In this document: one piece after another, positions 11,803 through 15,428 of the stretch
Position numbering within the stretch: the stretch's first letter is position 1
Layout of the letters: every line of letters starts with the position of its first letter
IMG/VR virus record: IMGVR_UViG_3300005918_000016
Direction: 5' to 3' (one strand)
DNA length: 64,000 bases
Source: a virus
Taxonomy: Duplodnaviria; Heunggongvirae; Uroviricota; Caudoviricetes
Notes under the pieces: model-generated
Seen by the model: only the letters and a program-made list of their open reading frames with translations
Databases searched by the model: none
What the model was told of the DNA's origin: nothing
Program-made: the position numbers and the translations under genes

Positions 11803-11830
11803 GGGATCATCTCACCGACCTGCTGAGTAG
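11803..11830 (+). promoter_or_regulatory. GGGATCATC-N13-GAGTAG motif with hairpin 11839-11856
   Basis: Exact consensus; AAGGAG; ATG at 11875. Confidence 0.55.
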
Positions 11831-11874: not shown

Positions 11875-12510
11875 ATGAGCAACCCTCAGATAGATACCCT
11901 GGTCAAACGGATCGCCGCCGCTCGGGACGCTTATTACAACGGCTCCCCCATCATGACGGATGTGGTTTACGACGCCCTGGAAGATCAGCTTCGAGCGCTC
12001 GACCCCAAGCACCCGGAACTCCTCAAGGTCGGTGCAGCCCCCGCCCCGGTCAAGGGTGCATGGCCGAAGGTCCGGCACAGCATCCCAATGTCCAGCCTGA
12101 ACAAGGCCCAGGTCGAAACGGATCTGGCTGCGTGGTTCGCCTCGGTGAGCAACGCCGATGTCGCTGTGATGGACAAACTTGATGGTATCTCGTGTTTTGA
12201 TGGGGCTACCCCACTGCATCTGGCTAATGGGGAAACTGTCCCCCTTCAAGAGGTCGTAGAAAAGGGACTGATGCCCCAAGTTTTAACCTGGGATCCTGAA
12301 AGGGGGGTCACCACTGAACAAGTCGTGGCCGTCAAAGACAACGGCATCAAGGATAACTGGGTTCGGGTTACCTTTGAAACGGATCCCCTGCATCTGGGAT
12401 CCTCTGTTGTGGTGACTGAAGACCATCTCTTCTATGTCAAGGATAAAGGGTGGGTTGAAGCTAAAGATCTCACGGGTGAAGACGTGCTTGACTGTACCGA
12501 ACAACCCTGA
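11875..12510 (+). CDS. ligA: NAD-dependent DNA ligase N-terminal fragment (adenylation KLDG) fused to split-intein N-half (~105 aa)
   Basis: N-terminus matches the LigA Ia/adenylation region up to KLDGIS. Then CFDGATPLHL...TEDHLF...DVLDC is Hint-N-like (Cys1, TxxH block) and runs to a stop at 12510. Confidence 0.7.
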   Translation: MSNPQIDTLVKRIAAARDAYYNGSPIMTDVVYDALEDQLRALDPKHPELLKVGAAPAPVKGAWPKVRHSIPMSSLNKAQVETDLAAWFASVSNADVAVMDKLDGISCFDGATPLHLANGETVPLQEVVEKGLMPQVLTWDPERGVTTEQVVAVKDNGIKDNWVRVTFETDPLHLGSSVVVTEDHLFYVKDKGWVEAKDLTGEDVLDCTEQP

Positions 12511-13531
12511 TAGTTTAGACCCCAGGATACCCCATCTAGCGGGTGTCCTGGGGGGCCTTATGTTATTAGGGGACGCTTGGTTTGTTGAACATTTCAGGAA
12601 AACCAGAAAACGGGGTAACACGATAGCTGGTCGTCAATGGACCTTGCGAGTAAAGCAAGAAAAACCTGTCCTGACAAAAATTTGTGACCGCTGTGGACAT
12701 AAAGAGATCACCTTATCGAGTCCATTATCTCGGGTTCGGCACGTGGTTAAACAAGCTGTAGAACAGGAACAGAAGTGGGGTCTGCATCTTTGCCCCAAAT
12801 GTGCTCGTAAGGAGGCACGCAAAAAGGCAGCTATTACGAGAGCAACGCCCGGATGGAGTGAGAACTTTGGTCGTCAAGTAGCTTTGGGTCTGGCTTTAAT
12901 ACCGTCAGACAAAAATGCAGAACGATATGAAAGAGCACGTCAAACCCGTATTGCCACCTATTCCCGCATGACACCGAAGGAACGACGCAGAGGTGTCGTC
13001 AAGCAATGGCAAACAATGACGGAGGAGGCTAAACAACGGAGAGCAAAAAAAATAGGCGAGGGTGCCAAAAAAGTTTGGGCCTCATTAACGCCAGAACAAA
13101 GAAACCAACGGGTTGCTCGGATGATCAAGGGGCTCCCTCGATCAAAGATATCGGATGATTTTCGACAACATCTGATAGATGCGAGATTGTATGCAGGCTT
13201 TGTAAGTGAACAAGTCATTTCAGGTTTCACCGTTGATGAGGCTAATGAGACCTTGAAAGTGATCCTTGAGTTCTTTGGGGACTACTATCATTGTAACCCG
13301 AGTAACCCCAAATTCTCAGACCCTGAGTTCTACAACACAACAATCCGAATGACATCGGCCCAAAAATGGCAGTATGATCGCCGTCGTTTAGCGGGACTCA
13401 GAAAAGTAGGGTACCGTATTCTAGTGGTATGGGAAAGTGACTGGCGTAAAAACCCTGAAGATGTGTTGAGCAGAGTGCGGACATTTCTGAATCAGTTTAA
13501 AACGGGATCATCTGCGGACCCCACAGAGTAG
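12434..13531 (+). CDS. free-standing putative homing endonuclease (LAGLIDADG-like HLAGVLGGLMLLGDA plus Vsr/PD-(D/E)xK-like C-terminal domain)
   Basis: Lies between the two intein halves in another frame. C-terminus GDYYHCNP...ILVVWESDW resembles Vsr-type endonuclease folds. Ends GSSADPTE inside a promoter motif. Confidence 0.5.
   Translation: MSRIKGGLKLKISRVKTCLTVPNNPDSLDPRIPHLAGVLGGLMLLGDAWFVEHFRKTRKRGNTIAGRQWTLRVKQEKPVLTKICDRCGHKEITLSSPLSRVRHVVKQAVEQEQKWGLHLCPKCARKEARKKAAITRATPGWSENFGRQVALGLALIPSDKNAERYERARQTRIATYSRMTPKERRRGVVKQWQTMTEEAKQRRAKKIGEGAKKVWASLTPEQRNQRVARMIKGLPRSKISDDFRQHLIDARLYAGFVSEQVISGFTVDEANETLKVILEFFGDYYHCNPSNPKFSDPEFYNTTIRMTSAQKWQYDRRRLAGLRKVGYRILVVWESDWRKNPEDVLSRVRTFLNQFKTGSSADPTE
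13504..13531 (+). promoter_or_regulatory. GGGATCATC-N13-GAGTAG motif located inside the fractured ligase locus
   Basis: Exact consensus; GAGG; ATG at 13563. Confidence 0.55.
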
Positions 13532-13562
13532 ACCTAGTGACGGTCATCAAACGAGGTCTACA

Positions 13563-15428
13563 ATGCGAGTTGCATCCGTTGAGAAAGTACCGGGACCCAG
13601 AAGAGCCTTTGATCTGACAATCCGCAATACGTCCTGTTACTTTGTGGGGCCTGGAATTTTAGCACACAACTGTGGGATGAGATACGAAAACAGGAAGCTA
13701 GTGCAGGCGCTGACACGGGGCGACGGGACGATAGGCGAGGATATCACCCGGAACGTCCTGCTGATGAAGGGTGCAGTCAAGGTACTGCCCCCGACGTTAC
13801 CGGATGGCACCCCCACCCCAGACGATGTGTGGGTGCGGGCCGAGGTTGTGGTGACCCACGATGACTTCGTCACCCACTTCAAGGGCGAATCCAACCCCCG
13901 TAACACGGCGAGCGGCACTGCGAAACGTCAAACTGACAACAGCAAATGTGCCTTCCTGACGGTTATCTGCTATCAACTCCTGCCCGGTGGTCGCCCGATG
14001 GCGTCCAAGAGCGCCGAGTTGAAGGCCCTGGCCACGATGGGCTTCCAGGTACCCCGCTGGGGTGAGTACAAGGGACTGGCAGCAGTGGAGGCCCTCTACC
14101 AGGACTACATCGCCACCGTCAGGAAGAGCCTGGGTTACGATATCGACGGGCTGGTGATCGAGGTGGCTGACGCCAACGCCCGTGCGATGCTTGGGGAACT
14201 GAACAACCGCCCCAAGGGTGCCTGCGCTTATAAGTTTCCTCATGAGTCCAAGCCGACCACGCTGCGGAGCATCCGTTGGCAGGTAGGCAACAGCGGGCGC
14301 ATCACCCCGGTGGCCGAATTTGACGTTGTGAACCTCGCAGGGGCGAACGTCAAACAGGCGAGCCTTCACAACATCAGCAACATCGAAGGGCTGTGGGGCA
14401 AAGCCACTGTTCCGGTACCCGGCGACGCAATTCTCGTTTCTCGCAGAAATGATGTTATCCCCTATGTAGAGGAAGTCCTGAACAAGTTCGGTACAGGCAC
14501 GGGACTCCGCACCCCGACCCAGTGCCCCTCCTGCCAGGGAGCCTTGGTGCGGGACGGCGAGTACCTTGTGTGCCGCAGCGAGGAGTGCCCCGCCCAGGCA
14601 ACCGGGGCCATCAGACGCTGGGTCAAGAAGCTCGGTGTCCTACACGTTGGCGAGACCCTGATCGACGCAATGGTGGATGCGTTCCCTTTCACCCTCACCG
14701 AGGAAGTGTTTGAAGTCACCTTCGGCGTAAAGAAGGATGACGTGAAGACCCTCCCGGCAGCGGATCAGGAACGGATACGCAACGCCCCAATGGACATCGC
14801 TGACCTCTACAACCTGGACCTGGACGAGGTCGCCTCCCTGGAGTTGAGCGGACGGCGTGTCGGCGGCTCGGCGGACAAAGCCCTCAGGAACCTTAACGCC
14901 AAGAAGACGCTGCCCCTGCACGTCCTGATAGGGAGCCTGGGTATCCCCCTGATCGGGCGCAGCATGGCCAAGGTGGTTGTGGACGCTGGATACACCACCC
15001 TGAACCTGCTCTTCAAGGCCAAGGTGCATGTTCCCATCGTCACCAGGGGCAAGACCCTCCCGGCAGTTGCCAGCATCCCTGGAATGGGGGACACGAAAGC
15101 GCTGGCCTTCGTGACGGGATTTGCTGCCAAGGCCGGGCTGATCGTCAAGTTGCGGGCCACGCAAGACCTTGGCGGAGCCGACATCACCATCCAGGACATC
15201 TCCGGGCCGTTGCTCGGGATGACCTTTTGCCTGACTGGCACCCGTGAACCCGCCCTGCTCGATGCTATCGAAAAGGCGGGTGGCACAATGAAGGGCAGCG
15301 TGTCCAAGAAACTATCCTACCTGATCGCCCTGGACCCGGACAGTACCTCGGGCAAAGCGAAAAAGGCCAAGCAGTACGGCGTGAAGGTGATCGGCTTGGA
15401 CGAGGCGTACAAGCTGGCGGGGGTGTGA
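13563..15428 (+). CDS. ligA: split-intein C-half (36 aa, ...GILAHN) fused to the NAD-dependent DNA ligase C-terminal extein (Cys4 Zn finger, HhH, BRCT)
   Basis: MRVASVEKVPGPRRAFDLTIRNTSCYFVGPGILAHN|CGMRYENRKLV...TRGDGTIGEDIT continues the LigA sequence after KLDG. CPSCQG...CRSEECPAQ zinc finger. C-terminal BRCT-like region. Confidence 0.75.
   Translation: MRVASVEKVPGPRRAFDLTIRNTSCYFVGPGILAHNCGMRYENRKLVQALTRGDGTIGEDITRNVLLMKGAVKVLPPTLPDGTPTPDDVWVRAEVVVTHDDFVTHFKGESNPRNTASGTAKRQTDNSKCAFLTVICYQLLPGGRPMASKSAELKALATMGFQVPRWGEYKGLAAVEALYQDYIATVRKSLGYDIDGLVIEVADANARAMLGELNNRPKGACAYKFPHESKPTTLRSIRWQVGNSGRITPVAEFDVVNLAGANVKQASLHNISNIEGLWGKATVPVPGDAILVSRRNDVIPYVEEVLNKFGTGTGLRTPTQCPSCQGALVRDGEYLVCRSEECPAQATGAIRRWVKKLGVLHVGETLIDAMVDAFPFTLTEEVFEVTFGVKKDDVKTLPAADQERIRNAPMDIADLYNLDLDEVASLELSGRRVGGSADKALRNLNAKKTLPLHVLIGSLGIPLIGRSMAKVVVDAGYTTLNLLFKAKVHVPIVTRGKTLPAVASIPGMGDTKALAFVTGFAAKAGLIVKLRATQDLGGADITIQDISGPLLGMTFCLTGTREPALLDAIEKAGGTMKGSVSKKLSYLIALDPDSTSGKAKKAKQYGVKVIGLDEAYKLAGV

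Follow-up and report, generated by a model that had tools for sequence, protein, structure and literature searches.

A fractured phage gene for NAD-dependent DNA ligase with a predicted split intein and a free-standing Vsr-like endonuclease gene between its halves

How can an NAD-dependent DNA ligase (LigA) be produced from a gene that is broken inside its catalytic motif, and what is an endonuclease gene doing in the break? These questions are raised by a locus in a 64-kb window (the whole stretch of DNA analysed, 64,000 nucleotides), which forms part of a 528-kb metagenomic contig from a very large phage-like genome. Three consecutive plus-strand genes in three frames encode the N-terminal half of the ligase, an endonuclease and the C-terminal half (Table 1), and G+C shifts from ~0.61 to 0.44-0.51 across the intein and endonuclease segment (12150-13650). 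We consider it highly probable that this is a fractured ligase gene, in which a mobile unit consisting of a class 1 intein, present only in split form, and a Vsr-like (EDxHD-type) homing endonuclease occupies the DNA encoding motif I.

Table 1 Features of the fractured ligase locus, in window coordinates.
Feature	Position	Strand	Description
Promoter-like motif, copy 1	11803..11830	+	GGGATCATCT-N12-GAGTAG; 45 nt before the ATG of the ligase N fragment
LigA N-extein	11875..12192	+	106 aa; domain Ia and start of the adenylation domain, ending at motif I (...DKLDGIS)
Int-N	12193..12510	+	105 aa; from Cys1 (CFDG...) to block B (VTEDH), ending ...DCTEQP, then TGA TAG
RNA hairpin	12520..12553	+	13-bp perfect stem; 3' arm holds the G-rich Shine-Dalgarno of the endonuclease gene
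Endonuclease gene, free-standing	12560..13531	+	323 aa; ATG 12560 to TAG 13531
Promoter-like motif, copy 2	13504..13531	+	exact copy; 32 nt upstream of the C-fragment ATG
Int-C	13563..13670	+	36 aa, MRVASVEKVPGPRRAFDLTIRNTSCYFVGPGILAHN; blocks F and G
LigA C-extein	13671..15428	+	585 aa and stop; Cys+1, remaining adenylation domain, OB fold, Cys4 zinc finger, HhH, BRCT

Two adjacent same-strand ORFs together cover full-length LigA. The first (11836/11875..12510) covered LigA model positions 1-109 (TIGR00575, E 7e-15; phrog_3869, E 3.5e-22); its real start is the ATG at 11875, downstream of AGGAG and a shared leader, giving a 211-aa product. The second (13563..15428, 621 aa) covered model positions 108-652 after Int-C and Cys+1, and its extein matched PF01653 (E 7e-32), PF03120 (E 1e-18), BRCT (E 2.8e-7) and positions 116-660 of PRK07956, and contained a Cys4 zinc finger (CPSC...C..EEC). 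The LigA domain set was present across the two halves (PF22745, PF01653, PF03120 and BRCT, with a weak HHH_5 match), and neither fragment alone reached whole-protein NCBIfam cut-offs. The break lies five residues past the adenylated lysine of motif I (KLDGIS/C). The N-extein aligned to the intein-less LigA proteins P0015 and P0016 as far as KLDGIS, and the deduced joined product, a 691-aa ligase with the junction KLDGIS-CGMRYEN, was collinear with intein-less homologues and gap-free across the junction (KLDGIS-L-SLRY..., 61% identity). A reading of this DNA from sequence only had described a cut after KLDGIS followed by a ~105-aa Hint-N up to a stop at 12510, and a second fragment from 13563 with a 36-aa Hint-C, Cys+1 and the remainder of LigA including Cys4 and BRCT. 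Each of these elements was found, and the alignment of the halves to LigA that it had proposed as a check gave the complementary model positions and the gap-free join above.

We examined the segments at the break as halves of an intein. Int-N matched the profile of the intein N-terminal splicing region (TIGR01445, E 3.7e-6, above its cut-off), and Int-N plus Int-C make up a complete HINT domain in which blocks A, B, F and G are conserved. Cys1, LANGE, T..H and GW were invariant in 18 homologues, YFVG and LAHN in nine loci, Cys+1 was likewise invariant, and C1, VTEDH, AHN and C+1, the class 1 features, were invariant in every homologue aligned. When joined, the halves aligned across both parts with complete 137-151-aa mini-inteins (2lwy, E 7e-7; Spl DnaX, E 3e-4; NrdJ-1, E 1e-3); similarity to Npu DnaE was marginal (E 0.18). 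Net charge was -12 for the acidic Int-N and +3 for Int-C. Modelling the joined intein with AlphaFold from a single sequence was uninformative (pLDDT 34), and a search for a contiguous ancestor intein at the ligase motif-I site found none. The sequence-only reading had called the intein DnaE-like. That description holds for the split architecture (~100 aa plus 36 aa) and fails by sequence: Npu DnaE matched far less well than the nearest solved structures, which are those of a bacterial intein-like domain, the Spl DnaX mini-intein and NrdJ-1. From the invariant Cys1, T..H, His-Asn and Cys+1 we infer, at the level of sequence, that the ligase halves are joined by protein trans-splicing.

The start of the endonuclease gene was assigned to ATG 12560, the Met with which all 17 homologues begin, and not to 12434. 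A 'LAGLIDADG-like' motif had been ascribed to this protein, but the string concerned (HLAGVLGGLMLLGDAW) straddles the real start codon, its internal Met being the first residue in 17/17 homologues, and it therefore lies mostly in untranslated leader. No LAGLIDADG Pfam match was found in the endonuclease at E <= 0.1, and its modelled N-terminal region is instead a Cys4 zinc ribbon (C42, C45, C78, C81) followed by helical repeats; the motif was thus discarded. The accompanying description of a third-frame ORF with a Vsr-like C terminus was borne out by profile matches (PF18741, E 3.8e-6; PF04480, E 3e-4) and by fold comparison. The nuclease domain (~residues 195-320) is Vsr-like of the EDxHD type, with D226, E237, D241, H244 and D273, and its fold agrees with those of I-Bth0305I and Vsr. 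D226, E237, H244 and D273 were invariant in 16-24 sequences. Aligned with both structures, D226, H244 and D273 are the equivalents of Vsr D51, H69 and D97, and E237 occupies the position of Vsr F62. Comparison with known homing endonuclease families, also suggested earlier, thus pointed to the Vsr/I-Bth0305I (EDxHD) type. In every full-length relative recovered the gene sits between intein halves, and we predict that its product cleaves DNA and supports homing.

The signals around the three genes differ. GGGATCATCT-N12-GAGTAG matched 24 times in the window vs 0.52 expected, 22 of them on the plus strand and all shortly upstream of ORF starts. It precedes both ligase halves and not the endonuclease. 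Copy 1 is followed by the shared leader (GTGAGGGGGCAAATGACCCCTGA...AGGAG), and copy 2 extends over the final nine codons of the endonuclease gene and its TAG stop, with a GAGG Shine-Dalgarno at 13552-13555 upstream of the C-fragment ATG. The motif at 13504-13531, previously noticed as a promoter, is real, recurs through the genome and also stands before the N half. Position and recurrence suggest a promoter, and another role (a processing or coupling signal) is possible because the TAG of the motif frequently serves the preceding gene as its stop codon. A 49-nt spacer separates the ligase N-fragment stop from the endonuclease start, and the ribosome-binding site of the endonuclease is buried in the 13-bp hairpin (dG -40.8 kcal/mol, z -4.25, 0/200 shuffles as stable); in an outer helix, endonuclease codons 2-4 pair with the region around the stop of the ligase N fragment (12505-12513). 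Related loci have structures of different sequence at or just upstream of the endonuclease start. The start-region fold was stabler than mononucleotide shuffles in the window and in 6/6 related stand-alone loci (z -1.8 to -4.9); a locus where Int-N and the endonuclease are fused lacked this excess stability (z -0.17).

At least nine divergent metagenomic loci (L004, L006-8, L009, L010, L089, L090, L094, L095, L097) contain the N-extein with Int-N, the endonuclease and Int-C with the C-extein in the same order. Their endonucleases are 40-67% identical, their frames and spacers vary (49-154 nt), they have their own Shine-Dalgarno, Met and double stops, and every Int-C gene of the nine begins with Met at the same position. 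For the five parts of the unit pN was 0.11-0.40 and pS 0.58-0.90, which indicates purifying selection on all parts, with dN/dS values that are rough because synonymous sites are saturated. The intein halves were better conserved than the N-extein. Together with the invariant splicing residues and the gap-free deduced join, these loci and the selection acting on them support the earlier suggestion of a 'fractured gene' architecture.

We propose that the ligase halves would be made separately (211 aa and 621 aa), each from a gene with a promoter-like motif and its own Shine-Dalgarno. Acidic Int-N and positively charged Int-C would then associate into one HINT domain, in which Cys1, the TxxH block, the terminal His-Asn and Cys+1 would perform protein trans-splicing and release the 691-aa ligase joined at KLDGIS-CGMRYEN. 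The endonuclease would be translated only weakly because the stable hairpin buries its ribosome-binding site, and translational coupling to the stop of the ligase fragment ahead of it is probable. During mixed infection with a related phage whose ligase allele lacks the intein, the endonuclease would cleave that allele, and the whole unit would be transferred when the cut is repaired on the occupied template, as homing or as marker exclusion. Promoter activity and translational coupling at this locus are, like splicing, predictions.

The final step has the most serious competitor. The endonuclease may no longer home, having been domesticated (e.g. for excluding competitor phages or for another nuclease function) or become inactive, with the split intein fixed in the ligase. 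Homing is not directly visible because the comparison yielded no close pair of occupied and empty alleles (identity to the nearest intein-less ligases is only ~61%); every intein-bearing locus is already split, and the hairpin would repress the endonuclease tightly. We nevertheless judge a non-homing endonuclease unlikely, given that its catalytic residues show no variation and are under purifying selection, that the motif-I site is patchily occupied among related genomes (empty in L170 and L172, occupied elsewhere) and that a sister unit of intein plus endonuclease, found at the corresponding motif of a phage RNA ligase, points to mobility in the past. Exclusion and homing are, moreover, compatible with each other. 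The closest relatives of the ligase Int-N are likewise split N-fragments, located directly after KxHG of a phage RNA ligase and after KFDG of a DUF6267 protein. At L173, the RNA-ligase locus that was read, the halves flank a related endonuclease. Tentatively, the motif-I coding sequence might be a shared landing site, with one lineage of split intein plus Vsr-like endonuclease having jumped across branches of the nucleotidyltransferase superfamily.

A second alternative is that the halves assemble non-covalently, through the intein halves as a dimerisation module or through the exteins. Fragmented phage enzymes that work without splicing exist, as reported for Aeromonas phage Aeh1 NrdA split by mobE (PMC3045599). 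In relatives of the present phage the ligase is also broken after the OB fold, where a TnsA-like nuclease gene is found and no intein, and this lineage therefore tolerates non-covalently assembled LigA at that other site. At motif I we consider assembly without splicing very improbable, as the break falls within the motif, where a 141-aa HINT domain retained five residues from the catalytic lysine would occupy the active site, and as residues needed only for splicing (Cys1, T..H, His-Asn, Cys+1) do not vary among 9-18 divergent sequences. In the LigA-bearing phages the ligase gene may be a mosaic of two independently occupied fracture sites, motif I and the OB/Zn-finger boundary.

We give hardly any credence to a decaying remnant, in which insertion inactivated the ligase and the phage relies on host LigA. 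Large phages can use a host ligase and the G+C of the region is atypical, but none of the three genes has an internal stop, LigA domains and motifs are all intact, pN is far below pS in every part and the arrangement is retained across relatives at only 40-67% identity. An artefactual split of a contiguous bifunctional intein by frameshift errors at ~12510 and ~13531, as the three ORFs in three frames and the middle ORF open to 12434 (a 77-nt overlap with the first) might suggest, is effectively refuted by the identical N fragment on 24 contigs, mostly of 0.2-1 Mb, by the separate genes, varied frames and spacers, start signals and double stops of the nine divergent loci, and by the separate Int-C gene even in the sole in-frame case; to our knowledge, inteins with Vsr-type endonuclease domains are also not a known class.

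In that in-frame case (L006-8) Int-N is fused to the endonuclease through a TGG at the stop position, and the fusion could be a living intermediate in the passage from a free-standing endonuclease to a bifunctional intein. The related loci cover empty, singly occupied, doubly occupied and fused states, and so provide a natural series for studying gene breakage by endonuclease genes and the origin of split inteins.

How does the locus compare with known systems? The predicted intein is a new natural split pair (105 aa plus 36 aa, Cys1/Cys+1, flanks GIS and CGM) and a possible candidate for an orthogonal trans-splicing tool. DnaE (Npu/Ssp), gp41-1 and NrdJ-1 are split at the same canonical site between blocks B and F and share the acidic Int-N of ~100 aa, the Int-C of 35-36 aa, Cys1, His-Asn and a +1 nucleophile. 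They differ in host protein and insertion site, and the two parts of DnaE come from loci far apart that no endonuclease gene separates, whereas the ligase halves flank an endonuclease gene.

That endonuclease would represent a new subfamily of Vsr-like homing endonucleases, with a zinc-ribbon and helical-repeat DNA-binding region. It was compared with E. coli Vsr (PDB 1VSR/1CW0), DUF559/MTES_1575 proteins (3HRL) and I-Bth0305I, the prototype of the EDxHD family and its only member with known activity, shown to be an active homing endonuclease (PDB 3R3P; PMC3239194). I-Bth0305I, a weak sequence match (E 0.021, 15-19% identity), comes from a group I intron of recA and has NUMOD/HTH modules at its N terminus, where the ligase-locus protein has the zinc ribbon and helical repeats. 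The His-to-Asp spacing is 29 residues here, 28 in Vsr and 9 in I-Bth0305I. Vsr is a stand-alone T:G mismatch nickase without an extra DNA-binding region; unlike it, the ligase-locus enzyme is encoded inside a broken host gene and has Glu in place of Phe62, a hallmark of the homing lineage according to a published report (PMC2677866).

In Aeh1 nrdA/mobE, as reported (PMC3045599), a free-standing endonuclease likewise splits an essential phage gene and has its ribosome-binding site hidden in a hairpin, but there is no intein and the fragments assemble non-covalently. That case resembles the TnsA-like second break in the ligase relatives, not the window locus. The closest parallel is the set of fractured genes described by Dassa, London, Stoddard, Schueler-Furman and Pietrokovski in 2009 (PMC2677866). 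Their paper reports eight host enzymes, including one DNA ligase locus from Lake Gatun, a Vsr-like endonuclease in 12 loci and an Aeh1-type late promoter (TATAAATA) in ten hairpins. Those loci have the same architecture (N-extein with Int-N, free-standing endonuclease gene, Int-C with C-extein), with phage DNA-metabolism enzymes as hosts and an RNA hairpin before the endonuclease start. The present locus differs in having its own genome's promoter-like motif before each half, as against the Aeh1-type late promoter in their hairpins. Their ligase locus, the only other fractured DNA ligase in the literature searched, lies outside the five that were completely assembled, and the main text does not give its insertion point, so that the comparison covers the architecture of the two loci. 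With fractured genes and one partial ligase locus described in 2009, the layout was already known in kind, and our understanding of such elements is unchanged. The locus is a complete new example of that layout and not a new kind of system: an entire fractured NAD-dependent DNA ligase in the long genomic context of a 528-kb contig, in a family of at least nine homologous loci.

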